Numbered from the stretch's first letter, positions 7,996-64,000 are shown. The stretch is DNA of 64,000 bases from an uncultured Candidatus Saccharibacteria bacterium (GCA_964648335.1 CAZYLZ010000006.1:3974-67973); one strand, 5' to 3'. Notes: generated from the sequence alone by a model not told the origin. Translations and numbers: made by a program.

Positions 7996-9483
7996 TCAGT
8001 TTGCAGTGAATACGCTAACCGATCCATTCGCTCCAGAACCCGACCCTGCATACAGGCTATTAGCCTCGCATTCGAGTGTCGTCCCAGAGTACGGCAGCGA
8101 TTTTTGCGTCACGGAGGAAATCGCTGATGGATCGCTAATGCGTAAGACTTGGAGCTTGCTTGTGGTGGTCGTCACGATAAACGCGAGCGTGTCGCGAACG
8201 ATAACGCCTGCCGCAGTGGCTCCGAGCGCGAATGCGCCTTTGGGCGCAGGCATGGCACTCGACGGGTCCTTTATATCGAGTACGTACAGCTCTTTATTAG
8301 GGCTCGAATATGTCCGCCCAAAGTAGAGATCGTCGCCGACGGCAAAGAGGGATCGTCCGAGTCCCACGCCGCCCGGGTTGTACACAGCACCCGGAGCCAC
8401 GACCGGATTATAGGGATTACTGATATCGAGCACCACGAGTTGCTTGGTGTTATCGTCGGTTGCAAGGTATGCGTAATTGTTGCGGATAGTTATTGCCGTA
8501 ACGCTCCTCCCCACTGCATAGCTTCCGCGTGCGACTGGAAACAAAGGATTGTGAACATCAATGATATGGAACTCCGGACCGCTCCCGGTCTTGCCAAGTC
8601 CAAGATAGAGATATCCGTTCTTGTATGCGACACTCACGCCACGGCCTTGTCCGCCGGTCCCGGTGACGCCCGGCGCCTTGTAAAAATACTTCACCGTCGG
8701 ATTCGAAGGAACCGAGACGTCGACGATTTTGAGCTGCGAGCATGCGCCGCCATATACGGTCGATGCATTCGAGAGATCGTCCGGGTTGAAGCACGATCCG
8801 AAGTTGGCTCCGTGCCCGTCGGCGACATAGGCGTAGTTACCTACGACTGTCACCATGGCGGGACCTGCGGTAGTTGACGTCGCGATATCGACAGATCCGA
8901 GCACGGTCGCGAGGCTCGATGTCGCGTAGATGAAGAAGTTCGGCAAGTTCTGCGATACGGTTTGCGCAAGCCCCACATATACCTTCCCGAACGCAGCATC
9001 GATCGTGCTCACTGGTCCCTGCATCGCATAGTCAGTTTGAGAGGGGTTTGTCCAATCCCCGGTCAAGACCGAGTCGCAGGTGTCGCTCGATTGCGCTGCA
9101 GAAAAATTAGAGACGAGCGAAGAGAGGCGCACGAACTGCCCTGTTCTACCGTAGCTACCGATCCAGGTCACGTTCGCCGTGATCTCTTTGCTCAGGAGGT
9201 CGCCGAGCGTTCTCACCGACAGCGTTTTAGTGTAGGTGATGGGCCCCAACACTTCGGTCGTGGTCGTCGGAACCAGGAGCTTGAAATCCTTGCGCGCTGT
9301 TGCCTGTGCGTTCTCGATCATCGCCTGTGAAATCCCAAGCGCTTCTGATTGAAGTTCGCCGTCGGTGCCCACTCCCTCGGCGCCGTACACGACCATGGCG
9401 ACTGCCGAGATCGACATCACCATTATGGCCATGGCAATCAATACCTCGACTACAGTGAATCCGTAAGATGCGTTTCGTTTCAT
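7996..9483 (-). CDS. Minor pilin/pseudopilin with beta-propeller-like repeat domain
   Basis: MKRNASYGFTVVEVLIAMAIMV prepilin motif, followed by repeated YAYVADG/YLYLG/YAYLATDD/LYFG beta-propeller-like motifs. Confidence 0.7.
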   Translation of the reverse strand: MKRNASYGFTVVEVLIAMAIMVMSISAVAMVVYGAEGVGTDGELQSEALGISQAMIENAQATARKDFKLLVPTTTTEVLGPITYTKTLSVRTLGDLLSKEITANVTWIGSYGRTGQFVRLSSLVSNFSAAQSSDTCDSVLTGDWTNPSQTDYAMQGPVSTIDAAFGKVYVGLAQTVSQNLPNFFIYATSSLATVLGSVDIATSTTAGPAMVTVVGNYAYVADGHGANFGSCFNPDDLSNASTVYGGACSQLKIVDVSVPSNPTVKYFYKAPGVTGTGGQGRGVSVAYKNGYLYLGLGKTGSGPEFHIIDVHNPLFPVARGSYAVGRSVTAITIRNNYAYLATDDNTKQLVVLDISNPYNPVVAPGAVYNPGGVGLGRSLFAVGDDLYFGRTYSSPNKELYVLDIKDPSSAMPAPKGAFALGATAAGVIVRDTLAFIVTTTTSKLQVLRISDPSAISSVTQKSLPYSGTTLECEANSLYAGSGSGANGSVSVFTAN

Positions 9484-9484
9484 A

Positions 9485-9973
9485 TCAGTGGGTCCAGGCG
9501 ATCGTACCTTCGACGCCGAATGTGATGGTTGATGATGATATCCCGTCGGTGATGGCGACCTCGGTGCCGGAAGGATACGTAGTGACGTCACCCGAGAGTG
9601 TATCGAAGACGACGTCAGAAACCGGACCTGAGAACGATACCGGGTACTCGGGTACGGTCACGATATCGACTGCTGTGTCGCGCGCTGCATACGACGTACC
9701 TTGAAAGAGTACATACTGCCCTCCTGACAGGTGCACACCGTGCGCCTTTCCAGCAGTACAACCCGTACCGAGGCAAATGTTGTTCATGCTCTCGGCGCGC
9801 GCTTTGTGGATCATCGCGACAAGCTTGTCACGTTCGCCGCGCAGCGACGATTTGCGGAAGGTATCCATGCCGACGAGCATGCTCATGCTACCGATGATAC
9901 CGACGAGCCCCATCACAACGAGAAGCTCAATCAGTGTGAAGCCGCCGGTGCGGACCAGACCTCTCCTACTCAT
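9485..9973 (-). CDS. Type IV pilin-like protein
   Basis: MSRRGLVRTGGFTLIELLVVMGLVGIIG prepilin motif. The start abuts the pilC stop. Confidence 0.75.
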   Translation of the reverse strand: MSRRGLVRTGGFTLIELLVVMGLVGIIGSMSMLVGMDTFRKSSLRGERDKLVAMIHKARAESMNNICLGTGCTAGKAHGVHLSGGQYVLFQGTSYAARDTAVDIVTVPEYPVSFSGPVSDVVFDTLSGDVTTYPSGTEVAITDGISSSTITFGVEGTIAWTH

Positions 9974-14933: not shown

Positions 14934-17900
14934 TTACGGATTCATCTGTGCGAGCCCCTGCTTCATCGTGACGACCGGGATGCCGTTTGCGACAAGATAG
15001 TTTACGTAGGTCTGGAAGTCTTCAGGAGTTGCTCCGTACTGATCGTTCTGATGATCGATCTGGTGGTACATGAGGATGAGCCACGTGTGGTTTGTCATCG
15101 CGGTCTCCGTCCACTGTTGCCACGTCGCAGCAGTCGTCGATGCATTCACCTCTTGTATCATGAGCTTGTACTTGTCGGTGGCCTTGTTGTTGTAGCCTTG
15201 GTCGACAGTGCGCGCAGCGACGTAACCGGCACTCTTTACAATCGCATCAGTGGTTGCGTTGTAGTCTCCATACGGATAGACGAAGGTATCTGCTGGCGTG
15301 ATGCCGATAGCATTGAGGTCTTGCTTAGCTCCGAGGATCTCGTCAGTAGCCGACGCTGCCGACAGGGTCGTCAAAAACGGATGCGTACGGGTGTGCGACG
15401 AGACTTCGTGGCCCGAAGCGAATATCTGCTGGACCTGCGCGGTGTTCATGTAGTCCTGCGCGATGTCGAGGTGAACGTCGTCGACCGTGAGTGATCCTGC
15501 CGTCGCGATCTTGTGATACACAGCCACGGTCTTGGTGTTAGCAGGCGGAATGAAGGTAAATGCCGCAGTCGCCCAGACAGCCGATGCTGGCACGGTACCG
15601 AGGTCTACCGTCTGCGTCGTGTTGTTCGTGAGTGTGTAGCGGACTGACACCGTGGTCGGGACCGTCGCCATGTAGCGATCGGTGTAGTTGTGCGCCTCGG
15701 CAGAAACGAGCGTCATCTCGTCAGGTTGCCACTGCGCACTGCCGCTCGCAAGCGATGCAACATCGATCTTGACGGCTTTCGCTCCCAGAACTCCGGCGAC
15801 CGGGTACGTGAAGGTCGTGGTGCTGACACCGGTCTTGATCGCAGTCCAGTTCGCTGGCGTCGTCGACGAGAGTGCGACTTCGAATGATGGATTATCGACG
15901 CGATTCTGGTTGATCGCCTCCTGCATCGACTTGGTGATGATAAAGAAGCTTCCTTTGAGACCAGCAGCATTCAGCATCTGATAGGCCGTGTCGTACTGCG
16001 ATCCCCATCCGTCGTCGAAGGTTATCGTGACGAATCCAGCGGGGAAACCATTGGGCCCCGGATCGATCGTCGAAGCCGCCTGCAGCCGAAGCGCCGCATT
16101 ATCGATAGTCAGCGAGCCGTTGCCGTTGATGAGGTGGAAGATGGTGACCTTGGTGCTCGATGCCGGCGGCGTAAACGCCTGCAGTACCGACGTCCAGCTT
16201 GCCGATGGCGCGATGTTGAGCGTGATATCCGAGTAGACGAACGAGTTATCGGAAAGTGTGTAGCGTGCGGTCAGGGTCGAGGTTGCGGTAGAGGTGTACT
16301 GGTTCGAGTATTCGTAGACCTGGCCGGGCGTTACCGCGACGTCCTCGAAGTACCATTTCGCATCGCCGTCGGTTCGGTTAGCCATCGAGACCGAAGCGGC
16401 AGCCGCGCCGTCGATACCCGCTACCGGGTAGCTGAAGGTTGTCGAGCTCGTACCCCAACCGCCCTGGAACCAGTGGTCGGGCACACCCACGACAGTCGCG
16501 GTCTCGAGCGACGGATTCTGAATGAGGTTTGGATTCTGAGGAGTCGGTGGGATGTAGAAGGTATTGAAGGTGACGGTCGACGCGTTGCCGATGTTGTTGG
16601 CAGCATCGGTCGCATATGCAGTGATCGTGTGCGAGCCATTCTTGAGAGCCTTGATCGGAATCTGCACGGTGTAGGGAGCTGCTGTAAGCTCTCCGACGAT
16701 GTGGTCGATACCGTTCGTGACTTCGTAGTGCACCGCAGTAACGGCGACGTTGTCGCTTGCCGCAAAGATGAGTGTCGTCGTCGCTGCCAGGATGGAACCG
16801 GTCGTCGGCTGCGTAATTGATACGACAGGTGCTTGCGTGTCGGGTATCGGATTGTTGACGGTAACGGTGATCGGAGTCGTCGATGCTGCGTTGTTGGCTG
16901 CGTCCTTGGCCTCTGCATAGACCGTGTGCGATCCATTAATAAGTGCCGTCGTGTCGAAGGTCATCGAATACGGCGCGGTCGCGTCAACTCCGTACGACGC
17001 ACCATCGACGAAGAACGTGACCTGCGTCACCGCGACATTGTCACTTGCTGTTGCCGTGAGCGATGTAGAAGTACCGACGACGGTTGCGTTAGCGGTTGGT
17101 GATGTCAGGGCTACAGTCGGCTTGGTTGTGTCTGCAGTCGTCGTCGAGTTCGATACGGTGAATGTCGCGGTGGTAGAGGTACCGATGTTCCCTGCGGCGT
17201 CGCGCGCCTGTGCGTACACCGTATGCGAACCGTTTGTGATTGATGTGGTGTTCACCGAGAGTACGTACGGAGCGGTCGTCGATTCGACTCCGAATGGTAC
17301 GCCATCGACGATGAAGCGGACTCCTGCGACAGCAACGTTATCCGAAGCGGTCGCCGAGAACGATGCTGTGCCGGAGAGGGTCGCACCCGAGGCTGGCGAC
17401 GTAAGCGCTGCGAGCGGCTTGGTGGAGTCAGGCGTCGAGGTCGCGCTGCCGGGGGCAGTGAGTGATGCGTTGTCGATTGTGAGCGTACCTACCGCGTTAA
17501 GTCCATGGAAGACGGTCGCCTTTACCGTGCCTGCGGGCGGCGTGAAGGTCCGTGTTATGTGTGTAAATCCGGAAGAAGCAGGTGCGGCACCGAGATCGAG
17601 ATAACTGTAGGTCGGCGTCGCGGTCTCGTATTGTACGGTGACGAAACTCGAACCGGTCGACTGGTAGTCGTCCTGGAAGGTATAGGTCGTGCCTGGGGTG
17701 ACAGCAACCGGCGTAAAGTACCACTTCGCGTCTCCCGAGGTGAATGCCGTGACCTGGAGCTTTGCGCCATTACCGGCCGCACCCGCCGACGGATACGTGA
17801 ATGTGCGAGTAAGCGTACCCCATCCACCCTGTGCCCAACCCAAGGGCAACGCTCCGTTTGCCGTCTCGAACGTGCCGTTGGTTATGAGATTGGATCCACT

Positions 17901-18752
17901 CGGAGGCACGACAATGACGTTGGAAACAGTGACCGCGACTGATGCCGAGGTCGCGTTATTTGCCGATGTATCGCGTGCTCGTGCAGTGATGGCATGCGCA
18001 CCGTTGGCGAGCGACGCGGTGTTAAGCGAAATGGAGTACGGCGCCGACGTGTCTTCGGCTCCCGTTGCGACACCGTCCACCAAGAACTGAACGCCAGCGA
18101 CCGCTACGTTGTCCGCAGCATTTGCCGAGAGTGTTACCGTTCCCGAGATCGTGGCACCTGCAGTTGGAGCAGTCACCGATACCGTAGGAACTACGCTGTC
18201 GGTCGATGTTGCGTTCGACGTTACCGAGGCGTTATCGATCGTGAGCGTACCTACCGACGACAGTCCGTGGAAGACAGTCGCTTTCACGACGCCAGCCGGA
18301 GGTGTGAACGTGCGCGTGATATGTGAAAACCCTGCCGAGGCGGGCGCGGCCGTAAGCGAAGCATAGCTATAGACCTGTGCTGCTGTCTCGTACTGAATCG
18401 CAAGGAAACTCGAACCGGTCGACTGGTAGTCGTCCTGGAAGGTATAGGTCGTGCCTGGGGTGACAGCAACCGGCGTAAAGTACCACTTCGCGTCTCCCGA
18501 GGTGAATGCCGTGACCTGGAGCTTTGCGCCATTGCCCGTCATTCCGGGAGCGGGGTACGTGAAGGTCTTGGTGTTAGTTCCCCATCCGCCCTGTGCCCAT
18601 CCTAGGGGCAGCGCTCCGTTTGCAGTCTCGAAGTCGCCGTTCACGACGAGGTTTGCCGCTGCAGTTGCTGCGAACGGATTAATGAGGATAAAGCCAGCGA
18701 TGGCGGTGAGGACCAGGAGCCCTACGAGACTTGCTCTGAGTGCGCGGTTCAT
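14934..18752 (-). CDS. Giant secreted polysaccharide deacetylase (CE4/NodB domain) fused to multiple CBM-like and Ig-like domains, IcaB/PgaB-like
   Basis: C-terminal NodB motifs FVTITFDDGWGS, GHEVSSHTRTHP, ILMYHQIDH. Several NLVVNGDFE..GGWG carbohydrate-binding-module-like domains. Repeated Ig-like domains (TVSVTAPTAGATISGT..). Signal peptide. Confidence 0.75.
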   Translation of the reverse strand: MNRALRASLVGLLVLTAIAGFILINPFAATAAANLVVNGDFETANGALPLGWAQGGWGTNTKTFTYPAPGMTGNGAKLQVTAFTSGDAKWYFTPVAVTPGTTYTFQDDYQSTGSSFLAIQYETAAQVYSYASLTAAPASAGFSHITRTFTPPAGVVKATVFHGLSSVGTLTIDNASVTSNATSTDSVVPTVSVTAPTAGATISGTVTLSANAADNVAVAGVQFLVDGVATGAEDTSAPYSISLNTASLANGAHAITARARDTSANNATSASVAVTVSNVIVVPPSGSNLITNGTFETANGALPLGWAQGGWGTLTRTFTYPSAGAAGNGAKLQVTAFTSGDAKWYFTPVAVTPGTTYTFQDDYQSTGSSFVTVQYETATPTYSYLDLGAAPASSGFTHITRTFTPPAGTVKATVFHGLNAVGTLTIDNASLTAPGSATSTPDSTKPLAALTSPASGATLSGTASFSATASDNVAVAGVRFIVDGVPFGVESTTAPYVLSVNTTSITNGSHTVYAQARDAAGNIGTSTTATFTVSNSTTTADTTKPTVALTSPTANATVVGTSTSLTATASDNVAVTQVTFFVDGASYGVDATAPYSMTFDTTALINGSHTVYAEAKDAANNAASTTPITVTVNNPIPDTQAPVVSITQPTTGSILAATTTLIFAASDNVAVTAVHYEVTNGIDHIVGELTAAPYTVQIPIKALKNGSHTITAYATDAANNIGNASTVTFNTFYIPPTPQNPNLIQNPSLETATVVGVPDHWFQGGWGTSSTTFSYPVAGIDGAAAASVSMANRTDGDAKWYFEDVAVTPGQVYEYSNQYTSTATSTLTARYTLSDNSFVYSDITLNIAPSASWTSVLQAFTPPASSTKVTIFHLINGNGSLTIDNAALRLQAASTIDPGPNGFPAGFVTITFDDGWGSQYDTAYQMLNAAGLKGSFFIITKSMQEAINQNRVDNPSFEVALSSTTPANWTAIKTGVSTTTFTYPVAGVLGAKAVKIDVASLASGSAQWQPDEMTLVSAEAHNYTDRYMATVPTTVSVRYTLTNNTTQTVDLGTVPASAVWATAAFTFIPPANTKTVAVYHKIATAGSLTVDDVHLDIAQDYMNTAQVQQIFASGHEVSSHTRTHPFLTTLSAASATDEILGAKQDLNAIGITPADTFVYPYGDYNATTDAIVKSAGYVAARTVDQGYNNKATDKYKLMIQEVNASTTAATWQQWTETAMTNHTWLILMYHQIDHQNDQYGATPEDFQTYVNYLVANGIPVVTMKQGLAQMNP
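17644..17771. repeat. 128-nt exact intragenic duplicate (copy 1), within a ~390-bp diverged CBM-domain duplication
   Basis: Identical to 18405..18532. The flanking ~130 bp on each side are similar but diverged. Confidence 0.85.
18405..18532. repeat. 128-nt exact intragenic duplicate (copy 2)
   Basis: Identical to 17644..17771. Confidence 0.85.
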
Positions 18753-20184: not shown

Positions 20185-20698
20185 AGAATGTTCGGATTGC
20201 TTTCGCTCGGCGACTGGCTCGGTCGTACTGATGGCGGAAAAGTGTCCGGTAGATTCGAGTATGGGCTTCACGTATGAAGCAGCGGTTAACAAAAAACCCA
20301 GGACATTGATCCAGGGTAGTACTGTCTACGAGCTCCACGAAAAACAGACCGTTCAAGTCGTGCTTTTCTGCAATCTCTTCGTTCAGATACGAGCCGGATC
20401 GTCTGTCGTTAACCGTCATACACGAGAAGCTCTCGCGTATGCGTATAGAAATACTCCTATAAGCGGGCATCGTCAAGCAGACAAAGGATGAAAATGATGG
20501 TCGCATGTCTAACTAATGGAGAAATCGCGGCTCAGGCACCAGTGGCAATCACTGGCCCAGAGGCCTGCACGGACGTCAATATTTTTTTAACTCTCTGCAT
20601 GGTAGTGTTTTCGATTGACCGGTCTGCGGTCAGCTTTATCAACGCCTTTGCAGGCGTATTCTGCAAAGGTATTTACCGGATTACAGAATCATTTCAGT

Positions 20699-22693
20699 AT
20701 GACTAGCATTTCTCGATACAGCTCGACAGATACGATCGCGCTTGCCGTTGCCATCGTGGCACTCATAGCGCTCGTGTTCTCGCCGATTTCTCATATTACT
20801 AAGGCAAACTCCCTCTTGGGATCGACCCACCTCTCGATCGCGCATGCAGAAGGCGATGGAGGGGGCGGTGACGGAGGTGGAGGCGATGGCGGAGGTGGTG
20901 ATGGCGGAGGCGGAGATGGTGGTGGTGACGGAGGTGGAGATGGTGGTGGAGATGGCGGAGGTGACGGAGGCGGAGATGGTGGTGGTGACTCCGGCGGAAG
21001 CGATGGTGGAGGCAGCGACTCCGGCTCTGGAGATTCTGGCTCCGGTGACTCGGGCATGGGCAGCGACGGCGGATGCTGCGGCGGCGGAGACGACTCGGGC
21101 TCAGAAGGCGGAAGCAACGGCATTTTCGTGCCGGTAATTCCGTCGACTCCGGTCGCAAACCCTTCGTGCTCTCTCAGCTCGATCAAGATCCCGATCCCGT
21201 TCGTCGGCGACGCCGCGGTCCTCTTTTGGAGCTCGTCGAACGCCACATCGGCTTCGATCGACCACGGAATCGGGGCTCTCTCCCCTGTCTCGGTAGGTAC
21301 TCGCGTGATCTCAAGCATCACGGCGACTACCAAGTACACAATGACGGCAGTCGGTGCAAATGGGGCAAAGGCTATCTGCTCGACGACAGTTACCGTGACG
21401 CCTGTCACGCCAAAACCTACCTGTGTCATCACTGCGACCCCAGGATCGATCGCAACGGGCGGCCATAGCGTCCTTTCTTGGAACTCGACTGACGCCGCAT
21501 CGGCAACGATCGACAACGGATTGGGATCGGTCATGACGAGCGGCGCTCAGAGCGTCTCTCCAACGGCAAACACTCAGTACACTATGACCGTTACAGGTAC
21601 CGGCGGTACCGCTACCTGCAACGCGACGGTAGTAGTCACGAATGTCCCTCCTCCTGCACAGCCAACATGCACGATCTCGGCGTACCCTTCTGAGGTCTCT
21701 CAGGGCGGATCGTCGGTACTCACCTGGTCGTCGACAAACGCATCGTCGGCATCCTTGAATGGCGGCATCGGGGCCGTGTCGACCAATGGATCACGATCAG
21801 TGACTCCGTCGTCAAACACAACCTATGTCCTAACGGTGACAGGTTCGGGCGGAACCGCGACATGCAGTGCACCAGTGACGATCAAGAACACTCCTCCAAC
21901 GCAGCCTTCGTGCACCCTCTCGGCCAGCCCGACACAGGTCGTGGCAGGCGGCGCGAGCGTCCTCTCGTGGACCTCGAACAACGCGACATCGGCAACCTTG
22001 GGTGCATTTGGAACGGTCGCCGTAAACGGATCGACCACCGTAACCCCGAGCGTCAACACAACGTACACACTCACCGTAACCGGTGCAGGAGGCACTGCGA
22101 CGTGCACGGCACACGTGACTATCAAGTCTGTACAGACATACACTCCGACCTGCTCTATCTGGGCAATCCCGGATGAGCAGATCGTTCCTGGTGGATCCAC
22201 GGCACTCTCGTGGTCTTCGACCAACGCATCGTCGGCATCGATCGATAACGGCATCGGGGCAGTGAGCCTCGAGGGCACACGTACCGTGTCGAATCTCTGG
22301 GACGACACCATCTTCACGATGAACGTTTCGGGCCAGGGCGGAACAGCACAGTGCTCGGTACCGGTATTCCTCAAGGAGACGACTCCAAAGCCGCCGAAAA
22401 AGCCAACCTGTGATATCCACATGGGTGGCAAGAACGCATACGGTGCCGAAGAGACCATCGCATGGAACACCGACGACGACGTCGACTCGGTAGAGATCGA
22501 GGGCGCCGGCGAAGTCCCTAAGCACGGATGGCGCGGCATCATGAAGCTCGACAAGCAGACCACCTTCAAGATGAAGGTAAAGAAAGGAACCCAGGTCACC
22601 GAATGCTCTTGCGTAGGAAACCCTATCGAGGACAAGTCGGCAGACTGGAGCAGCTGGTCTAACCAGGGCTGGCAGCACAGCGCGTGGTACTAG
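20699..22693 (+). CDS. Secreted/anchored tandem-repeat surface protein with Gly/Asp-rich low-complexity tract and 5-6 Ig-like ~85-aa repeats
   Basis: TM/signal N-terminus. (GDGGG)n then (SGSGD)n tract. Repeats of the form PTCTISA.P..V..GGSSVLTWSSTNASSASL.GIGAVS..TYVLTVTGSGGTATC. Start set at MTSISRY (20699). Confidence 0.65.
   Translation: MTSISRYSSTDTIALAVAIVALIALVFSPISHITKANSLLGSTHLSIAHAEGDGGGGDGGGGDGGGGDGGGGDGGGDGGGDGGGDGGGDGGGDGGGDSGGSDGGGSDSGSGDSGSGDSGMGSDGGCCGGGDDSGSEGGSNGIFVPVIPSTPVANPSCSLSSIKIPIPFVGDAAVLFWSSSNATSASIDHGIGALSPVSVGTRVISSITATTKYTMTAVGANGAKAICSTTVTVTPVTPKPTCVITATPGSIATGGHSVLSWNSTDAASATIDNGLGSVMTSGAQSVSPTANTQYTMTVTGTGGTATCNATVVVTNVPPPAQPTCTISAYPSEVSQGGSSVLTWSSTNASSASLNGGIGAVSTNGSRSVTPSSNTTYVLTVTGSGGTATCSAPVTIKNTPPTQPSCTLSASPTQVVAGGASVLSWTSNNATSATLGAFGTVAVNGSTTVTPSVNTTYTLTVTGAGGTATCTAHVTIKSVQTYTPTCSIWAIPDEQIVPGGSTALSWSSTNASSASIDNGIGAVSLEGTRTVSNLWDDTIFTMNVSGQGGTAQCSVPVFLKETTPKPPKKPTCDIHMGGKNAYGAEETIAWNTDDDVDSVEIEGAGEVPKHGWRGIMKLDKQTTFKMKVKKGTQVTECSCVGNPIEDKSADWSSWSNQGWQHSAWY
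20862..21060 (+). repeat. Coding microsatellite-like (GGN GAY)n tract encoding (GDGGG)n/(SGSGD)n
   Basis: ggcgatggagggggcggtgacggaggtggaggcgatggcggaggtggtgatggc... periodic repeat, slippage-prone. Confidence 0.8.
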
Positions 22694-30334: not shown

Positions 30335-30421
30335 TGCCGAGAGTGGGACTCGAACCCACACGCCGTTTTAAGTCGGCAAGAGATTTTAAGTCTCTGACGT
30401 CTACCATTCCGCCATCTCGGC
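30335..30421 (-). tRNA. tRNA-Leu(UAA), type II with long variable arm
   Basis: Minus-sense GCCGAGATGGCGGAATGGTAGACG..AGAGACTTAAAATCTCT..variable arm..TGTGGGTTCGAGTCCCACTCTCGGCA. Anticodon TAA. CCA not encoded. Confidence 0.85.
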
Positions 30422-30424
30422 TTG

Positions 30425-30640
30425 AGATATTTAGAGGGATTCGGCCACCCGTAATTTGCTGGTGCAAATTCGGTCGGCCCCCGCTCGTCCTCGTCAGGAC
30501 TCCGCGATGCGAATCCCTCCCGTCATGTGCCTATGCACATGACTTCAGGCTCCCTCATGGGATTCGGGAGGCCTGAGAGGGATTCGCACCCTCGCATAGT
30601 AGTTTTGCAGACCACCGCGTTTACTTCTTCGCCATCAGGC
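30425..30640. other. Highly structured intergenic region with four copies of GGGATTCG/CGAATCCC and several perfect hairpins (candidate ncRNA or tRNA-derived fragments)
   Basis: gagggattcg (30434) pairs with cgaatccctc (30509). Hairpins aatttgc-tggt-gcaaatt, tcatgtgc-ctat-gcacatga, gaggg-attcgca-ccctc. The reverse complement TGCGAAT loop resembles a T-loop. Confidence 0.35.
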
Positions 30641-30745
30641 CGTAGCAGGCAGTATAAATCATGAATGGCATAGTCCAAAATGCTTGAGTAGTGCCGCCCC
30701 ATCAGCATGGTTAAATTGAGTCCAGGAAGCATACAGGAGAAACTA

Positions 30746-34365: not shown

Positions 34366-34447
34366 TGGGCAGAGGGAGACTCGAACTCCCATGCCTTGCG
34401 GCGTCGCGTCCTAAGCGCGGTGCGTCTACCAATTTCGCCATCTGCCC
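34366..34447 (-). tRNA. tRNA-Leu(UAG)
   Basis: Minus-sense GGGCAGATGGCGAAATTGGTAGACGC..CCGCG CTTAGGA CGCGA..GGGAGTTCGAGTCTCCCTCTGCCCA. Anticodon TAG. Confidence 0.8.
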
Positions 34448-34536: not shown

Positions 34537-34609
34537 GCGCCCGTAGCTCAGTTGGTAGAGCAGCCGCCTCTTAAGCGGTAGGTCCATGGTTCGAGTCCAT
34601 GCGGGCGCA
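34537..34609 (+). tRNA. tRNA-Lys(CUU)
   Basis: GCGCCCGTAGCTCAGTTGGTAGAGCAGCCGCCTCTTAAGCGGTAGGTCCATGGTTCGAGTCCATGCGGGCGCA. Anticodon CTT. Confidence 0.9.
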
Positions 34610-56025: not shown

Positions 56026-56226
56026 AATATTTACAATCGGCGAACACCTGCGTTTCCCATCGCCACATATCCGTCGCCGTACTGCAAGTACGTCTCCGCA
56101 TATGTTGCTCGGGCGCCTTGGATTTCATCCGATTCTAAAAATTCTATGCGAAACACGAAAAGTCCCGAGAGGGGCTTTTTTTGCTGATTTTCTAGACATC
56201 ACGGAGTCGTGTATACTGTTTCGACT

Positions 56227-57144
56227 ATGTACGATTTGATCATTGTAGGAGGAGGCCCGGCAGGAGTATCCGCAGCGGTCTATGCCGCACGCAAACAATT
56301 AAAAACAGCATTTATCACCGACGAGTGGGGCGGACAGAGTATCGTATCCGACGACATCCAGAACTGGATAGGTACACCCCACATCTCGGGCGCAGACCTC
56401 GCAAAGTCGCTTAAGGCGCATGTTACCGAATACGCTGGTTCGTTCGTGACCACGCTCTCTCCCAAGCGCGTCGCGTCTGTCGAGAGCAAGGCCGATTCGG
56501 TTTTGGTTACGCTAGCGTCCGGCGAGACACTTGAAGCACAGGCGCTTTTGGTTGCTACCGGTGCCAACCGACGCAAGCTCGCAGTACCTGGCGCCGATAT
56601 GTTCGAACACAAAGGACTCACATACTGCGCATCGTGCGACGGACCGTTGTTTGCCGACATGGATGTCGCAGTCGTAGGTGGCGGTAATGCCGCATTCGAG
56701 ACCGCAGCGCAGCTACTGGCTTACTGCAAATCGGTCACCCTCTTCAATCGCACCGACAAATACCGCGCCGACGAGATCACCGTCGCGAAAGTCCTCGCAA
56801 ATCCTAAGATGAAGGCCATCAACAACGCCGAGCTCGTCTCGATCGAGGGCGACAAGTTCGCCGCAGGCATCAAATACAAGGTTGCGGGCGCAGAATCGAC
56901 GCTTCCCGTTTCGGGCATCTTCGTCGAGATTGGACTCATTCCGAATACTGACTGGCTCGGTTCTCTCGTCGAGCTCAATGACGTCAAGCAGGTCGTGGTA
57001 AACCCCTGGACGCAACAGACTTCGAACCCGCGCATCTGGGCTGCCGGCGACGTCACCAATGCGCACTATCACCAAAACAATATTGCCGCCGGAGATGCGG
57101 TAAAGGCGCTCGAAGACATCTACATGTCGCTCAAGACCAAATAA
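56227..57144 (+). CDS. trxB: Thioredoxin-disulfide reductase
   Basis: MYDLIIVGGGPAG FAD motif, CASCDG redox-active disulfide, second GGGNAA NAD(P) motif. Confidence 0.85.
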   Translation: MYDLIIVGGGPAGVSAAVYAARKQLKTAFITDEWGGQSIVSDDIQNWIGTPHISGADLAKSLKAHVTEYAGSFVTTLSPKRVASVESKADSVLVTLASGETLEAQALLVATGANRRKLAVPGADMFEHKGLTYCASCDGPLFADMDVAVVGGGNAAFETAAQLLAYCKSVTLFNRTDKYRADEITVAKVLANPKMKAINNAELVSIEGDKFAAGIKYKVAGAESTLPVSGIFVEIGLIPNTDWLGSLVELNDVKQVVVNPWTQQTSNPRIWAAGDVTNAHYHQNNIAAGDAVKALEDIYMSLKTK

Positions 57145-57266: not shown

Positions 57267-58043
57267 ATGAACAAAAAGCAGAACCCGCTGCAAATTCGCG
57301 TCGGCGATACGGTCAAGATTCGATTCACGCACTACACACCCACTCGAATTTTCCTCGCCGAAGTGCTTCATGTTACGGACCGAACGTTGATGGGCTGCGA
57401 CGCCTGCATCGACTACAAGCCCGAGGAGTCCGCACGGGACCTGGACGCCGAGAAGTCGAACATCCCCTACGGGTGCTCGGTCTCGCATGTCATCGAGGTC
57501 GTCAAACGTGCACCCTACAAGGCAATGAAGTCGGCGCCGACCAACATCTTCCGCGAGAATATCGTGAGGCAAACGATTGGTCGCAAGGGTGACCCGAGGA
57601 ATACGGGAGACTGGCAAGGATACTATCGCTTCGGCGACATCCGAGTCGGATACGAAGAGCTCGGCACGTTGGTCGAGATCGCCCTCGCCTCGGCGAAGGA
57701 TACCCTCGATCGCCCGATGGACATCCAGCGTTTCCGGAATCTGTGGGCTAAGGACGGCTATCGTGGCAAGGTCGCCTTGCCGGTCGATCCCCTGTTCGAA
57801 GACCCGTACACGAAGAAATACAATCCGTACACGGCTGTCCGTTGGAGCGTTTTCCGAAACTATGTGCTCGCCAATCGGCAAAAGATTCTCCTTTCCCGCA
57901 AAGAAATGGAGAAGGCAGGTCGCGAGTATAGTGAAGCGATGCAGGCGCGGGACGACGACTTCGACACGTCGTTCAGCCGCGATCTCGACGATGAGGCGGA
58001 GGAGTGTCGACACGATGAAGATGCTCTCGCCTTCACTGATTGA
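57267..58043 (+). CDS. Hypothetical protein (258 aa) with acidic C-terminus
   Basis: Clean ORF behind a strong promoter. Terminator gagcccggggaaaatacccgggctc at 58072-58103. Confidence 0.45.
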   Translation: MNKKQNPLQIRVGDTVKIRFTHYTPTRIFLAEVLHVTDRTLMGCDACIDYKPEESARDLDAEKSNIPYGCSVSHVIEVVKRAPYKAMKSAPTNIFRENIVRQTIGRKGDPRNTGDWQGYYRFGDIRVGYEELGTLVEIALASAKDTLDRPMDIQRFRNLWAKDGYRGKVALPVDPLFEDPYTKKYNPYTAVRWSVFRNYVLANRQKILLSRKEMEKAGREYSEAMQARDDDFDTSFSRDLDDEAEECRHDEDALAFTD

Positions 58044-58165: not shown

Positions 58166-59083
58166 TCATTCACACGCGTAGTACTTGGTTCCTTCGTTCG
58201 GCGTGACCTCGAGCCGCTCAGTGCCGTTTGCACACAGCATGGCGAGCGCCCGTTGCCTGCACTCATCTGACTCAGATAGGCACATCACCGAATCGCTGTC
58301 TGGATTCTCCGGATCGTGCATAGCGACAGGATCATCCCCAGAATCAGGTGGATAGTAGGTCACGATCTCGTCTGTGCCGCGCTTTTTCGTCTCTGCCATC
58401 TCCTGTTCGCGAAGTGCCTCGAGTTCGGCATGCTTCTTGGCGAGCACACGAAGCTCTGCTGTGAGACGAGCGATTCGCGTCTCCAGTTCGATTGCCGCAG
58501 TCTTGGCTTGGACCGACGCGGCGGCATGTTGCTTCGACTGCGACGCGAGCTTTTCTTGCACCGCAGCCTGCGAGGCCTTGAGTGCAGAAATCTCGCTCTG
58601 GAGCGACTTCTGTAAGGCTTGTGCCGAATCTCGTTCGCGATCGAGTCCCTCAGAAAGTGCCTTTTTCTCGACACGCTCTGCTGCGATATTCTTGCGCAGC
58701 TCTTGGTTGTCGAAGACTGCTGTCGGAACACTCGCCTTCAACTGCTCCATCTCGGACGACAGGGCGTTAGTTCGCTCCTTCTGCCGGTCTCGCTCGAGCT
58801 CAGCGCTCTTCTGCAGACCGGTCGCGCGCTCGGCTATCGCAATCAACCGCTTCGCCTCGGCGGTCAGCTCGATATTCTCGTGCACGATATCCCGCATGCT
58901 TTTGGGATACCACAGGGTATACACGTAAAAAGAAGTCAGGAGGCAGAGCATGACTGCACAGAGCGAAAGCCCGGCAGTCTGCAGTGGCGACATCTTTCGG
59001 TAGGTCTCTAAGAGGCGCTCGAGCGCATCTATACTCGCAGCTATCACGGCATCCTCGTCGGTTTGAGTGAGAAGACTAGTCAA
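58166..59083 (-). CDS. Membrane-anchored coiled-coil protein
   Basis: One TM helix followed by long Ala/Glu/Lys/Gln-rich heptad region. Terminator hairpin aaagcccggcatcgctgccgggcttt at 58138-58165. Confidence 0.45.
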   Translation of the reverse strand: MTSLLTQTDEDAVIAASIDALERLLETYRKMSPLQTAGLSLCAVMLCLLTSFYVYTLWYPKSMRDIVHENIELTAEAKRLIAIAERATGLQKSAELERDRQKERTNALSSEMEQLKASVPTAVFDNQELRKNIAAERVEKKALSEGLDRERDSAQALQKSLQSEISALKASQAAVQEKLASQSKQHAAASVQAKTAAIELETRIARLTAELRVLAKKHAELEALREQEMAETKKRGTDEIVTYYPPDSGDDPVAMHDPENPDSDSVMCLSESDECRQRALAMLCANGTERLEVTPNEGTKYYACE

Positions 59084-59189: not shown

Positions 59190-59576
59190 ATGGGTGCCTT
59201 CATCGACGGGGACGCTGACTTCGAAGAGCTGCAACTCGACCTCCCACCCTCGAAGATGCTTCTCGACGCGCAACTACATGGCCTTCTAGGCGATGACCAG
59301 TTAGCGGAACAGGCCTTGCGCAACATCCTAATCCTCACCAAGCGGAAAGACCGATGGTTTATCTTTACGCTCAAAGAGTACAAAGTACTCGTTGACCACG
59401 CAGTAACGGTCGACGAAGAAATGGCGTTCGATCGCCTAGTAGATTACGACTACCTGAGACGGCACATTCGCCAGTATCGTGTCGAGCAAAAGACGGCAGA
59501 TCTGCTTCTTAAAAGCGGTCGTGTGGCACACCTTGACTGGAGTCCGACGAGAACCTGTTTCGGCAGGCACAAATAG
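59190..59576 (+). CDS. Hypothetical protein (128 aa)
   Basis: Followed by terminator gaggcgccactctgtggcgcctcttttcg. Confidence 0.4.
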   Translation: MGAFIDGDADFEELQLDLPPSKMLLDAQLHGLLGDDQLAEQALRNILILTKRKDRWFIFTLKEYKVLVDHAVTVDEEMAFDRLVDYDYLRRHIRQYRVEQKTADLLLKSGRVAHLDWSPTRTCFGRHK

Positions 59577-60118: not shown

Positions 60119-60286
60119 TCGCATGAGGCTCTCAGGCCTCATTCGACCAACGTACCAAAAGCCCCAGAGCAATCTGGGGCTTTTGGTATGCAAACGTTGT
60201 CCCGCTATTATGAAATAAAGCAGCGTGGTATCGTGTAATACCTAGTGCACTCTGTCGTCTAGAATTATGGAGAGCACGCAACCATC

Positions 60287-60889
60287 ATGAAAAAAATACT
60301 GCTCTCCCTGTTCGTCATGCTCTCGTTCGGAGGGTACGCCCTCTATAGCAAGAACGCTGCCGAAGCAGAAGCCAAGAATATACCAGTCGCCTCCATTGCT
60401 GACTCTGCACTTCCGACCGGCAGCGCAGCAGTCCCCGCACCGGCGCAACCCGCATACTCCGTCTCGCGTCGCCACGATGATGACGATGACGACGATGATC
60501 GACCCATTCGAAAGCCCGCGACAATCCCGGCTGTCCAACCCGCCACGATTCCGACACCCACAAACAATGTACCGACGCCCTCGCAGGCTCCGGTCGCAAC
60601 CGGGCAGTACAAAGACGGAAGCTACACGGGCAACTCGGCCGACGCGTACTACGGGTATGTGCAGGTGCAAGCCATCATCAAGGGCGGAAAGATTGCAGAC
60701 GTGAAGGTGCTCCAGTCGCCAAACGATCGCAGCACTTCGATACGCATAAACAGCCAGGCGATGCCGTATCTCGTTCAAGAAGCAATACAGGTTCAGAATG
60801 CCAAGGTAAACGTCGTCTCTGGCGCAACCGATTCGAGCTACGCATTCCAAGAGTCTCTTGGTACCGCTCTTGCCATAGCGCAGCGCTAA
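60287..60889 (+). CDS. Secreted/anchored FMN-binding-domain protein (ApbE substrate candidate) with poly-Asp tract
   Basis: Signal/TM N-terminus. FMN_bind pattern YKDGSYTG...GGKIADVKVL...VVSGATDSS with SGAT flavinylation motif. Run of 9 Asp. Confidence 0.7.
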   Translation: MKKILLSLFVMLSFGGYALYSKNAAEAEAKNIPVASIADSALPTGSAAVPAPAQPAYSVSRRHDDDDDDDDRPIRKPATIPAVQPATIPTPTNNVPTPSQAPVATGQYKDGSYTGNSADAYYGYVQVQAIIKGGKIADVKVLQSPNDRSTSIRINSQAMPYLVQEAIQVQNAKVNVVSGATDSSYAFQESLGTALAIAQR

Positions 60890-60891
60890 CC

Positions 60892-61635
60892 ATGATCGAA
60901 CGGCGCGACATCATGGGCATGCCGATTGCCGTCGATATAGTCGGCGCCGATACTACGTCGGGCCATGAGGCGGTATTCACGTACTTTCGTAGCATCGACA
61001 CTATCTTCAGCACCTACAAGCCTGAGAGCGAGATGAGTCGGATAAACCGAGGCGAGATAGCTCTGGCCGACGCAAGTGGGCTCATGAACGAGATCTTCGC
61101 GCGTGCCCGCGAGACCAAGGCGGATACAAACGGGTTCTTCGATATCGAACACGACGGCACGATCGATCCTTCGGGCATCGTCAAAGGATGGGCAATACAG
61201 AACGCCGCTCGCATCCTCGACGACCTCGGCTATGAGCATTTCTATGTCGAGGCCGGCGGAGACATCGAGGTACGCGGCTTCAACGATGAAGGCAAGCTCT
61301 GGCAGATAGGCATACGTAACCCATTCGAGAAGTCTCAAATAATCAAGGTCGTTGCACTCACCAACCGAGGTATCGCGACGTCTGGTGCGTATCTGCGTGG
61401 CGCGCACATCTACAACCCGCACGACTCGAGCGATACGCTCGCCGAGATAGCGAGCATGACCGTCATAGGACCAAACGCCTACGAGGCAGACCGCTTTGCC
61501 ACCGCCGCCTTTGCGATGGGTCGGGACGGCATCGCATTCATCGACTCGATTCCGGATCTTGAGGGATATTCAATCGACAAGTATGGCATCGCGACCATGA
61601 CGAGACGCTTCACCGACTTTACCCATACGACGTAA
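60892..61635 (+). CDS. apbE: FAD:protein FMN transferase ApbE family
   Basis: DPSGIVKGWAIQ, EAGGDIEV motifs typical of ApbE, located between two FMN_bind genes. Confidence 0.7.
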   Translation: MIERRDIMGMPIAVDIVGADTTSGHEAVFTYFRSIDTIFSTYKPESEMSRINRGEIALADASGLMNEIFARARETKADTNGFFDIEHDGTIDPSGIVKGWAIQNAARILDDLGYEHFYVEAGGDIEVRGFNDEGKLWQIGIRNPFEKSQIIKVVALTNRGIATSGAYLRGAHIYNPHDSSDTLAEIASMTVIGPNAYEADRFATAAFAMGRDGIAFIDSIPDLEGYSIDKYGIATMTRRFTDFTHTT

Positions 61636-61647
61636 CCCAAAGAATCT

Positions 61648-62535
61648 ATGCAATCATTCAATAAAAAAATACTCGCATCGGTCGCCACCATCGTTTCGTT
61701 TGCCGCGTATTCTGTCTACGTCCGCTCGAGCGACGCGTTAGCACTTGCCGCACGGGCGAATCCCGGCGATACGAGTGTGCTCGCGACCAAAGAATCTGCT
61801 CCGGCGCTCGAACGGCTTGACGCTACAGCGACCACGACTCTCCTCACCGTCCAAGAGATAAAGCAGCAAGCGCTCGAGGCGAAGCGACTTGCGATCGAGG
61901 CCGAGCTGCAAGCCGAGAAGACGCTCGCCACCATCGCCAAGCAAGAATCCTCCCCTCCACCGGCGAAACCCGCTAAGATTGCTGTCGCAACGGTTGTCAA
62001 AAAGGCAACGCCGACCGCAAAGCCGGCAGTGACAACAACAAAGACGGTCGCTTCCCCAACGCCACCACCCGCATCGAATGCGGCACAACTGCAGGCTGCC
62101 GCCGAGGCCACTGCACGTTCTGCCGCAGCTGCGCAGGCGCAAGCGCTCGCAGACCAACAGGCCCGCGATCAAGAAGCGGCGCGACAAGCTGCGGCAGCGG
62201 CCGAAGCTGCACGCCAAGTGGCCACTCAACAGGCAGCACAGGCAAGCGGACAGTACAAAAACGGCAGCTACACCGGTACAAGCGTCGATGCCTATTATGG
62301 CTTTGTACAGGTAGAGGCTATCATCCAAGGTGGCAAGCTCGCCGACGTCCGCTTTTTGTCATACCCCAACGATCGAAAGACGTCGGTGCGCATAAACACA
62401 AGTGCGATGCCAGAATTGATACAAGAGGCCATCCAGGCACAAAGTGCGAACGTCAACGGAGTGTCCGGAGCTTCTGACACCAGCCAGGCCTTCGTCGAGT
62501 CGCTCGGTGCCGCATTGTCGCAGGCACACGCATAA
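61648..62535 (+). CDS. Second FMN-binding-domain protein with Ala/Gln-rich linker, motif variant SGAS
   Basis: QYKNGSYTGTSVDAYYGFVQVEAIIQGGKLADVRFL...GVSGASDTS. TM/signal N-terminus. Confidence 0.7.
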   Translation: MQSFNKKILASVATIVSFAAYSVYVRSSDALALAARANPGDTSVLATKESAPALERLDATATTTLLTVQEIKQQALEAKRLAIEAELQAEKTLATIAKQESSPPPAKPAKIAVATVVKKATPTAKPAVTTTKTVASPTPPPASNAAQLQAAAEATARSAAAAQAQALADQQARDQEAARQAAAAAEAARQVATQQAAQASGQYKNGSYTGTSVDAYYGFVQVEAIIQGGKLADVRFLSYPNDRKTSVRINTSAMPELIQEAIQAQSANVNGVSGASDTSQAFVESLGAALSQAHA

Positions 62536-62552
62536 AACCACTCATGATCAAC

Positions 62553-64000
62553 GCCGTAGACTCATTTCTCAACAAGATTACGATGTACCGCCTTTTGGCG
62601 TATTACTTGGGCGGCCTGGTTGCAGTCGCGACAGCGTTTTCTGCCGTCGGCATCCTTCCGTACGATCCTCTGGCACTCCTCACATCGACTGCGTTTCTTG
62701 TGTCGGTGTGCTGGCTTTTTAATTACGTGATAGCCCGTATCTGGGAAACTCCTACCAACAGCGAATCTGCTCTCATCACGGCGCTCATATTGGCACTCAT
62801 CATCACGCCCGAGCGCCCTGATGTCTCGTTCTTTTTCTTGTTCTGGGCGGGCGTACTCGCAATGGCCTCGAAATACATCATCGCCATCCGTGCCAAACAT
62901 CTCTTTAATCCCGCGGCGCTTGCTGTTGCCATTACTGCTCTCGTCTTGGACCAACCCGCGACCTGGTGGGTAGGTGGCAATATACCGATGCTTCCCTTCG
63001 TTCTCGTCGGCGGCATCCTAATTGTACGCAAGATCCGACGTATTGATCTTGTGCTTTCATTCGTGGCCGCCGCGATACTGAGCTCGCTCGCGCCTGCGTT
63101 CATAAACGGTGGAGACGTGCTGACGACGCTTTCGCGCACACTCATCCACACGCCACTTTTCTTCTTTGCGTTTGTGATGATAACCGAGCCCCTGACCATG
63201 CCGCCGCGGCGACCAGGACGGATCGCATATGGATTGTTTGTCGGTGCACTCTTTGCGCCGTGGGTCAACATCGCTTCCTTCTACTTTACGCCCGAGTTAG
63301 CACTCCTGGCCGGCAACATGCTCTCGTACGCACTCAGCCCCAAGTTCAAGATGCTTCTTAAGCTCAAAGAAAAGATACTCTTGGCCGATAACGCTTACGA
63401 ATTTGTCTTCGACGCCTCGGGGCATACCTTTATTCCGGGACAATACGCAGAATGGACGATACCCGCCGATTCGTCGGACTCACGTGGTAATCGACGGTTC
63501 TTCACCATCTCATCTGCTCCGAACGACCCGGAGATACGCGTCGGCATCAAGCTCTATCCTAATCCGAGCACATTCAAGAAACGCCTTTCCGAGCTGGTTG
63601 CCGGCGACACAGTGCTCGCTGGAACTATCGCGGGCGACTTTACCATGCCAAATAATACGGCTCAAAAGCTCACTTTTATAGCGGGCGGCATCGGTGTGAC
63701 GCCGTTCATCAGCATGATTCGCTCACTAGACGACACTAAACAGAAGCGAGATATCGTCTTCTTCTATGGCAACGCAAAAGAGTCGGAGATTGCGTACCGG
63801 GATCTCATCGAAGCTATCGCGCAAACCGCCGGAGTACGTGTCGTCTACGCGCTCTCTGACAAAACCGTTCCCGAGACATGGCAGGGTGAGCGCGGTTTCG
63901 TAAACGCAGCCATGATTGCTCGGCATGTGCCCGACCATGCCGACCGCCTCTTCTATATTTCGGGTCCGAATTCGATGGTTATGGCAGTCTCAAACGAACT
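62553..64000 (+). CDS. Polytopic membrane protein fused to ferredoxin-NADP-reductase-like FAD/NAD(P)-binding domain (continues beyond window end)
   Basis: No stop from ATG 62553 to the window end, so absent from the ORF table. 6+ TM helices, then RRFFTISSAP (RxYS-like FAD motif) and FIAGGIGVTPF (GGxGxxP NAD motif). Confidence 0.6.

Follow-up and report, generated by a model that had tools for sequence, protein, structure and literature searches.

The question raised by this locus is how a bacterium of the candidate phyla radiation (CPR) might pass electrons through its membrane to flavoproteins at its surface. The locus lies in a stretch of 64,000 nucleotides from an uncultured Candidatus Saccharibacteria bacterium (GCA_964648335.1, CAZYLZ010000006.1:3974-67973), here called the window. 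Four genes on the plus strand, g1 to g4, run from position 60,287 to the end of this stretch. An earlier note on the DNA had described two paralogous genes for proteins with a flavin mononucleotide (FMN)-binding domain, FMN_bind, flanking a gene for the flavin transferase ApbE, followed by a gene joining a membrane domain to an FNR-type module and running off the window. Coordinates and Pfam matches agree with this layout (Table 1), and the genes are separated by 2, 12 and 8 nt only. The rest of the window, with pilin-like proteins, giant surface proteins and FtsA/FtsZ, is consistent with a CPR genome. With their tiny genomes, CPR bacteria are believed to live by fermentation, and respiratory chains are missing from most of them. 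For such cells a self-contained set of three or four genes would be one of few outlets for reducing power.

The operon probably encodes an NQR/RNF-like complex passing electrons from cytoplasmic NAD(P)H to exported flavin proteins. The earlier note had likewise proposed a transmembrane electron chain leading to extracellular flavoproteins; this is the best-supported explanation of the locus and matches the model given in the passages on NQR/RNF-like systems of two published studies (PMC8238504, PMC10979944). The complex can be described as a cut-down relative of Na+-NQR and RNF that would retain a single one of the two electron routes across the membrane.

A sample of 84 loci was examined by phmmer with the window proteins as queries; it consists of 81 related loci, the window itself and one neighbourhood present in two additional copies. 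The order FMN_bind-ApbE-fusion is found in 64 of them and the order ApbE-FMN_bind-fusion in five, with a few partial sets on short contigs. Because the set recurs in order in 64 of the 84 loci, its association goes far beyond chance. FMN_bind genes on both sides of apbE occur in this sample only in the window and in locus L001. A scan of species-representative genomes gave more than 577 loci, and the 80 best come mostly from Patescibacteria (Kaiserbacteria, Paceibacterota, metagenome-assembled genomes labelled Saccharibacteria, and others) and Chloroflexota, one of them the cultured Dictyobacter aurantiacus. Kaiserbacteria are the closest relatives of g4 that bear a name. In an exhaustive profile search, 604 clusters at 50% identity were found at E<=1e-30, mostly of about 490-515 residues, which is the length of the fused protein. 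A large family with cultured Chloroflexota such as D. aurantiacus in it is experimentally tractable; the published model is of the complex of Ktedonobacter racemifer.

The NqrB/RnfD-like membrane domain and the FNR module of g4

The polytopic N-terminal domain of g4 matched PF03116, the NqrB/RnfD family, with an E-value of 1e-10 and 41.7 bits against a cut-off of 27.7. A search of the PDB with the single membrane-domain sequence returned nothing relevant, and a profile was needed: built from 18 membrane domains, it found RnfD of Azotobacter vinelandii (8ahx_D, E 2e-4), and the alignment of the membrane domain with E. coli RsxD by hhalign reached a probability of 93%. Since Foldseek searches with a full-length model were swamped by the FNR half, the membrane domain was also modelled alone. 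The resulting AlphaFold2 model (pLDDT 84.7, pTM 0.82) had RnfD or NqrB chains as all of its top 15 Foldseek matches in the PDB, with TMq between 0.56 and 0.70, and urea and ammonia channels followed far behind. Positions of the helices in the model and the distribution of Lys and Arg in the loops suggest ten helices, from H14-34 to H250-264, with both ends of the domain and the FNR module in the cytoplasm.

The C-terminal half belongs to the FNR family, as had been expected of a membrane oxidoreductase at this place. Residues 264-481 align with cytochrome b5 reductase 2eix (E 2e-12), and sequence matches in the PDB include cytochrome b5 reductase, NqrF and flavohemoglobin. The full-length AlphaFold2 model (pLDDT 88) superposes on the flavohemoglobin FAD/NAD module 4eh1 with a target-normalised TM of 0.84. 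The RRFFTISS and GGIGVTPF motifs reported earlier were both located. A pair of Pfam families, FAD_binding_6 and NAD_binding_1, had been put forward for this module; the NAD_binding_1 (PF00175) match is strong (E 2e-19), and FAD_binding_6 gave no match of its hidden Markov model (HMM), the FAD half being backed instead by 2eix, by FNR-type NCBIfam models, NqrF among them, and by 4eh1.

A polytopic N-terminal domain followed by an FNR module is also the layout of bacterial NOX, and the Ferric_reduct model had been among the checks suggested earlier; with a domain of that type, g4 would be a haem oxidoreductase whose membrane part binds two b haems and continues into FAD and NAD domains. The NOX of Streptococcus pneumoniae, 8qt6, is indeed among the Foldseek matches to the full-length model, and a weak match to NAD_binding_6 was seen (E 0.001). 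The former superposes with a root-mean-square deviation of 17 Å over the full length, since the FNR half alone fits, and the latter scores 19.5 bits, below its cut-off of 22.2. There is no match to Ferric_reduct (PF01794) at E<=0.1, and the membrane domain alone resembles RnfD and NqrB and then the urea and ammonia channels. A NOX or ferric reductase is thus highly improbable, and this identity was rejected on the missing HMM match and the RnfD/NqrB fold. Because the polytopic domain is a homologue of NqrB/RnfD, electrons would cross the membrane on flavins and not on haems.

The NqrB/RnfD-like domain differs from its namesakes in one region. The stretch between the FNPA motif and the following GG measures 107 residues in E. 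coli RsxD, where it holds the flavinylated GISQATPLD loop, and 32 residues in the fusion. The flavinylated loop of the RnfD type is therefore absent from g4, and where RnfD and NqrB have this long loop, on the predicted outer face, the fusion has an invariant A-[T/S]-W-W turn (residues 139-142, nucleotides 62958-62969). This loop analysis agrees, independently, with the loss of the NqrB/RnfD flavinylation site noted in the NQR/RNF-like passages of Huang et al. 2024 (PMC10979944). With the loop deleted, the tethered subunits would carry the one covalent flavin.

The ten-helix fold of the membrane domain is preserved as a whole, TMq reaching 0.70 in the comparison with RnfD, and acidic residues are invariant at E74, at E215 in the TEP motif equivalent to the TDP of RnfD/NqrB, and at E251. 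NqrB/RnfD is the subunit thought to hold the ion path of NQR and RNF. These features would suit a minimal redox-driven ion pump, in which oxidation of NAD(P)H is coupled to translocation of Na+ or H+ through the NqrB/RnfD-like domain, and such a pump would provide a membrane potential to CPR cells without a respiratory chain. The operon, on the other hand, has no NqrD/E (RnfA/E) pair, which in NQR and RNF holds the intramembrane iron centre and part of the coupling, and the energy available would depend on the acceptor. Ion pumping by this complex is considered unlikely. The subunit families NqrD/E (RnfA/E) and NqrA/F or RnfB/C appeared neither among g1-g4 nor among the genes that recur beside the module in about 80 loci; scanning for them did not cover the remainder of the window exhaustively.

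Tethered flavin subunits and an ApbE without export signal

The proteins encoded by g1 and g3 scored marginally when taken alone against the FMN_bind model of Pfam (25.4 and 23.0 bits, cut-off 22), and with their relatives they form a coherent family of 76 homologues in the sampled loci. Lengths in this family range from 139 to 295 residues, owing to a variable linker between an N-terminal hydrophobic anchor and the C-terminal FMN domain. The motif [ST]GA[ST] is found in 75 of the 76 members (SGAT in 62, SGAS in eight and TGAT in five), and in 74 it lies 18-21, mostly 19, residues from the C-terminus. It closes a heptad [D/N]xx[ST]GA[ST] which begins with Asp in 46 members, with Asn in 25 and with some other residue in five. 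The SGAT of g1 and the SGAS of g3 were both located as described earlier; the aspartate run of g1, for which nine residues had been given, has eight by our count (residues 64-71, nucleotides 60476-60499) and is kept in L001.

The FMN domains of g1 and g3 are 68% identical. As each is about as close to the single-copy orthologues of other lineages, the duplication is not very recent. Both keep the anchor pattern, and so both could dock on g4. This pattern is a helix of the form (K/R)(K/R)(F/Y)xLS...F..Y, conserved across phyla and more positive on its N side in 74 of the 76 homologues. In g1 and g3 hydropathy and charge bias reveal the hydrophobic segment directly after KK, so that N-terminal anchors with positive charge on their N side were found in both proteins. 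Conservation of the anchor across phyla argues for a helix that stays uncleaved and lies packed on the membrane subunit, in the manner of NqrC/RnfG. The predicted topology is N-in, C-out, with the FMN domain outside.

The ApbE encoded by g2 has conserved catalytic features. It matches the ApbE structures of E. coli, Salmonella enterica and Vibrio cholerae in the PDB (E 1e-18 to 1e-13), and its transferase motifs FSTYK, ATSGAY, GAHIYNP and EADRFAT align with those of the E. coli enzyme; FSTYK, ATSG, RGxHIY(N/D)P and ADRxAT are kept in 57 operon ApbEs. The Tyr of FSTYK stands at the position of Tyr60 in E. coli ApbE, which we take to be a transferase-type residue. Since these residues are conserved, g2 looks like an active FAD:protein FMN transferase. 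It is compact, without a segment of about 50 residues that matches roughly positions 124-178 of E. coli ApbE (comparison with ftp/apbE, L085:3480-4535). The His of RGxHIY(N/D)P stands where characterized ApbEs have their general base (V. cholerae His257), and the TSG and AD..T motifs serve Mg and FAD (PMC12052999).

The N-terminus of g2 is MIERRDIMGMPIAV, and seven residues precede the conserved MGMP strand, whereas 41 residues, made up of a lipoprotein signal and a linker, precede the equivalent MGT strand of E. coli ApbE; in the alignment with the mature S. enterica construct (3pnd), residue 8 of g2 is paired with residue 22. Neither a signal peptide nor a lipobox was found in g2 or in the ApbEs of essentially all of about 70 related operons. 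In 49 related operons the MG motif stands at residues 7-9 after MK(Q/E)TR, and beyond a conserved beta-strand no 17-residue window of the operon ApbEs reaches membrane-like hydropathy. Longer open reading frames (ORFs) called for ApbE in some loci are out-of-frame read-through of upstream sequence without hydrophobic segments. Fusion of g2 to g1 or a miscalled start was ruled out: the start codon of g2 lies 2 nt past the stop codon of g1 in a different frame, and about 50 loci share the MK(Q/E)TRxxMGMP start. The locus had earlier been labelled an extracytosolic flavinylation module. Both FMN_bind proteins are anchored with the charge pattern of an N-in helix, in keeping with this label, and for the enzyme itself, an ApbE without signal peptide or lipobox, the label is doubtful.

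A leaderless ApbE could also be read as a sign that the whole complex faces inward, with the FMN_bind domains in the cytoplasm, the anchors N-out, and electrons running from NAD(P)H to FMN, on to the membrane domain and then to a membrane-soluble or internal acceptor, such as a quinone in Chloroflexota. Such a complex would resemble the last steps of Na+-NQR and not electron export; in Na+-NQR, electrons of NqrB end on quinone at the cytoplasmic side. The missing leader and the missing hydrophobic segment in essentially all related operons favour it, as does the precedent of Klebsiella pneumoniae, where an ApbE without signal peptide is an FMN transferase of the cytoplasm and acts on a cytoplasmic substrate, fumarate reductase (PMC12052999). 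The charge bias of the anchors, positive on the N side in nearly all homologues, argues for the opposite orientation; NqrC and RnfG, which share the anchor, are periplasmic, and linkers rich in Pro, Thr, Ala and Gln and of very variable length are typical of exposed tethers. To our knowledge, CPR bacteria generally lack quinones. The AlphaFold-multimer model in the NQR/RNF-like passages of Huang et al. also has the FMN_bind subunit on the outer face (PMC10979944). An inward-facing arrangement is considered improbable.

Proposed electron path, known relatives and the possible place of flavinylation

In the outward-facing complex that we favour, NAD(P)H would first reduce the FAD of the FNR-type domain that g4 has on the cytoplasmic side. 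Homology and the published model suggest that electrons then pass through the NqrB/RnfD-like domain, probably by way of a non-covalent flavin in the pocket that binds FMN or riboflavin in NqrB. The next stop would be the FMN linked by a phosphoester to Thr181 of g1 or Ser276 of g3, installed from FAD by g2. The FMN domain, on its flexible linker, may dock on g4, collect electrons and hand them to an acceptor outside, which could be ferric iron, some other oxidant beyond the cell or a partner protein. No conserved neighbour that might encode an acceptor was seen among clustered flanking ORFs of about 80 loci, the most frequent being response regulators (11) and histidine kinases (10), and no iron transporter recurred in these loci, where neighbour clusters were judged from representative sequences and not by HMM scans. 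As no other gene family recurs beside the module, the acceptor is not encoded with it. In a fermentative CPR cell without a respiratory chain the complex likely serves to dispose of reducing equivalents by regenerating NAD(P)+, to reduce extracellular compounds, e.g., in iron acquisition, or both. With the module, CPR cells could reduce compounds outside the cell, iron among them, and might do so on the surface of a host.

The closest described relative is the NQR/RNF-like system. In the passages that deal with it, Méheust et al. 2021 define it as a PF03116 and PF00175 fusion in a flavinylation cluster, within five genes of ApbE or FMN_bind (PMC8238504), and g4, with g1, g2 and g3 immediately upstream, falls within this definition. 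Huang et al. 2024 modelled the K. racemifer complex with AlphaFold-multimer as two subunits; in the part of the paper devoted to it, the NqrB/RnfD flavinylation site is lost and the NqrC/RnfG-like subunit extends its covalent flavin to the non-covalent flavin pocket of the membrane subunit (PMC10979944). No experimental work on the system turned up in a full-text literature search. The window shares with it, as far as those passages describe it, the fusion beside an NqrC/RnfG-like FMN_bind gene and apbE, the occurrence in CPR bacteria, the missing flavinylation Thr of NqrB/RnfD and the absence of an acceptor gene. It differs in having two FMN_bind subunits flanking apbE, one with the aspartate run and the other with a linker of about 165 residues. 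The distribution found here, mainly in Patescibacteria and Chloroflexota, also differs from the Actinobacteria and CPR bacteria named in the relevant passages of PMC8238504. With its second tethered subunit, which is specific to the lineage, the window extends a published class. The comparison further adds a family-wide leaderless ApbE to what the NQR/RNF-like passages of the two papers discuss; in these passages, and in term searches of both texts, no comment on an ApbE without signal peptide was found (PMC8238504, PMC10979944).

With Na+-NQR and RNF themselves the operon has in common the NqrB/RnfD fold, a tethered NqrC/RnfG-like subunit with D/N-x-x-S-G-A-T, an FNR module related to NqrF and maturation by ApbE. 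It lacks homologues of NqrA/D/E and RnfA/B/C/E, its FNR module has no 2Fe-2S domain, and the periplasmic loop of about 75 residues that bears covalent FMN in RnfD/NqrB is deleted in g4. Electron flow is predicted to run one way, outward, in contrast to the semicircular route of Na+-NQR and RNF. The flavin-based extracellular electron transfer of Listeria (Ndh2, EetA/B, DmkA/B, FmnB, PplA) offers a functional parallel: cytoplasmic NADH is oxidised and electrons reach a surface FMN_bind protein flavinylated by ApbE in a cell without outer membrane. There, however, the membrane step relies on Ndh2 and a quinone and not on an NqrB-like/FNR fusion, and FmnB is an exported lipoprotein, unlike the leaderless g2. 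The PplA model scored 18.8 bits against the operon, with a cut-off of 325.

Several points weigh against electron export by this operon. We infer the cofactor content, the direction of electron flow, the donor specificity, the acceptor and the flavinylation site. The predicted export of g1 and g3 is based on hydropathy and the positive-inside rule, together with the homology of the two proteins to NqrC/RnfG. In both proteins the heptad (NVVSGAT and NGVSGAS) starts with Asn where the conserved Asp of the motif stands, while the last four positions fit; in ApbE substrates, a change of this Asp to Ala has no more than minor effects, and Ser is accepted with lower yield (PMC12052999). The A[TS]WW turn of g4 could be a cryptic flavinylation site, although neither the Asp nor the Gly of the ApbE heptad is present in it. 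In some relatives (L002/L003, L005, L042) the fusion has no FMN_bind or ApbE gene within 10 kb. Finally, there is a real inconsistency between an ApbE predicted to be cytoplasmic and substrates predicted to lie outside, which is resolved just by assuming that flavinylation precedes export.

The most economical reconciliation of the leaderless g2 with exported substrates would be that it acts on the C-terminal motif of g1 and g3 in the cytoplasm, before translocation. SecYEG can pass side-chain adducts of about the size of FMN. ApbE accepts a seven-residue tag, which works best at a protein terminus (PMC12052999), and the cytoplasmic ApbE of K. pneumoniae has a soluble substrate of the cytoplasm, whereas the candidate substrates here are membrane-anchored and predicted to face outward. 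That flavinylation before translocation is a trait of the whole family is put forward only tentatively, alternatives being the inward-facing complex discussed above, an unconventional export of ApbE, or a different role for g2. If true, it would be an ApbE pathway with no need for export of FAD. It could also explain the apparent depletion of extracytosolic flavinylation in CPR bacteria in the 2021 survey, which was filtered on signal peptides (PMC8238504). The mismatch in location between ApbE and its substrates poses a concrete and testable question about where and when the FMN is attached.

Limits of the operon and neighbouring observations

The coordinates of the genes, domains and motifs are collected in Table 1. 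The C-terminus of g4 lies about 20 residues beyond the end of the window, judging by its closest relative P0001, which is 94% identical and has a full length of 505 residues. What follows g4 past position 64,000, to which the earlier note had pointed, was judged from L001, the contig of P0001: it carries the same four-gene set and continues with an unrelated methyltransferase, so the operon is taken to end at g4. No riboswitch or other Rfam family was detected upstream of g1, where only sub-threshold terminator-hairpin look-alikes appeared. Antisense ORFs of 130-202 residues across the region had zero Pfam matches and were treated as spurious.

Table 1. Genes, domains, motifs and flanking signals of the flavin operon, in window coordinates.
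Feature	Position	Strand	Remarks
GC-rich hairpin after RRM RNA-binding gene	~60157-60190	+	Read from sequence; upstream boundary
Sigma-70-like promoter match	60183-60211	+	TTGGTA, 17 nt spacer, TATTAT; weak consensus match
g1, FMN_bind protein	60287-60889	+	200 aa; PF04205 25.4 bits, cut-off 22
g1 anchor, linker and domain			N-terminal signal-anchor MKKILLSLFVMLSFGGYALY; Pro/Ala/Thr-rich linker; FMN_bind domain residues 122-195
g1 predicted flavinylation site	60818-60829		Thr181 in NVVSGAT; SGAT residues 178-181
g2, ApbE flavin transferase	60892-61635	+	247 aa; PF02424 E 1e-40
g3, second FMN_bind protein	61648-62535	+	295 aa; FMN_bind 23.0 bits, cut-off 22
g3 anchor and linker			Anchor KKILASVATIVSFAAY, same type as g1; linker ~165 aa rich in Ala, Thr, Gln (30% Ala)
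g3 predicted flavinylation site	62464-62475		Ser276 in NGVSGAS; SGAS residues 273-276
g4, membrane/FNR fusion	62544 to >64000	+	485 aa seen; NAD_binding_1 E 2e-19, NQR2_RnfD_RnfE E 1e-10
g4 N-terminal domain, NqrB/RnfD-like	62544-63338	+	Residues 1-265; 10 predicted helices
g4 membrane motifs			KHLFNPA (118), A[TS]WW (139), TEPLT (214)
g4 C-terminal FNR-type FAD/NAD(P)H module	63384-64000	+	Residue 281 to window end
g4 FAD motif RRFFTISS	63492-63515		Residue 317
g4 NAD(P) motif GGIGVTPF	63684-63707		Residue 381

Among the relatives, P0015 (62% identical to g4; L002:10001-11521 and L003:5687-7207) comes from a groundwater CPR genome in which the fusion stands alone between a transketolase and a DUF1003 gene; a weak match to the S component of an ECF riboflavin transporter lies 8 kb downstream. 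L042, L052, L058, L068, L071 and L072 belong to metagenome-assembled genomes labelled Gammaproteobacteria, Alphaproteobacteria (Mesorhizobium sp. 65-26) or Acidobacteriota, and their sequences fall amid those of Patescibacteria and Chloroflexota. These labels may reflect errors of binning or labelling, or horizontal transfer.

Upstream of the operon by 3 kb, right after ftsA and ftsZ, the window encodes a thioredoxin-reductase-like Pyr_redox_2 protein (56209-57144, plus strand, E 2e-44), which is not kept beside the module in other loci. ORFs without Pfam match follow at 57267-58043 (plus strand, 258 residues), 58166-59083 (minus strand, 305 residues) and 59190-59576 (plus strand, 128 residues), and another lies at 20615-22693 (plus strand, 692 residues). 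The 305-residue product has an apparent hydrophobic segment resembling a membrane helix, followed by a region rich in Ala, Glu, Gln and Lys with the look of a coiled coil. At the gathering score, the Rfam matches of the whole window are four tRNA genes alone, at 30335-30421, 30569-30641 and 34366-34447 on the minus strand and at 34537-34609 on the plus strand. Large surface proteins are predicted on the minus strand: one of 1305 residues with VWA and SpaA-like prealbumin domains (3566-7483), one of 531 residues with a pilin-type N-terminal methylation motif and LVIVD repeats (7996-9591), and one of 1272 residues with four Big_7 Ig domains and a polysaccharide deacetylase domain (14934-18752).

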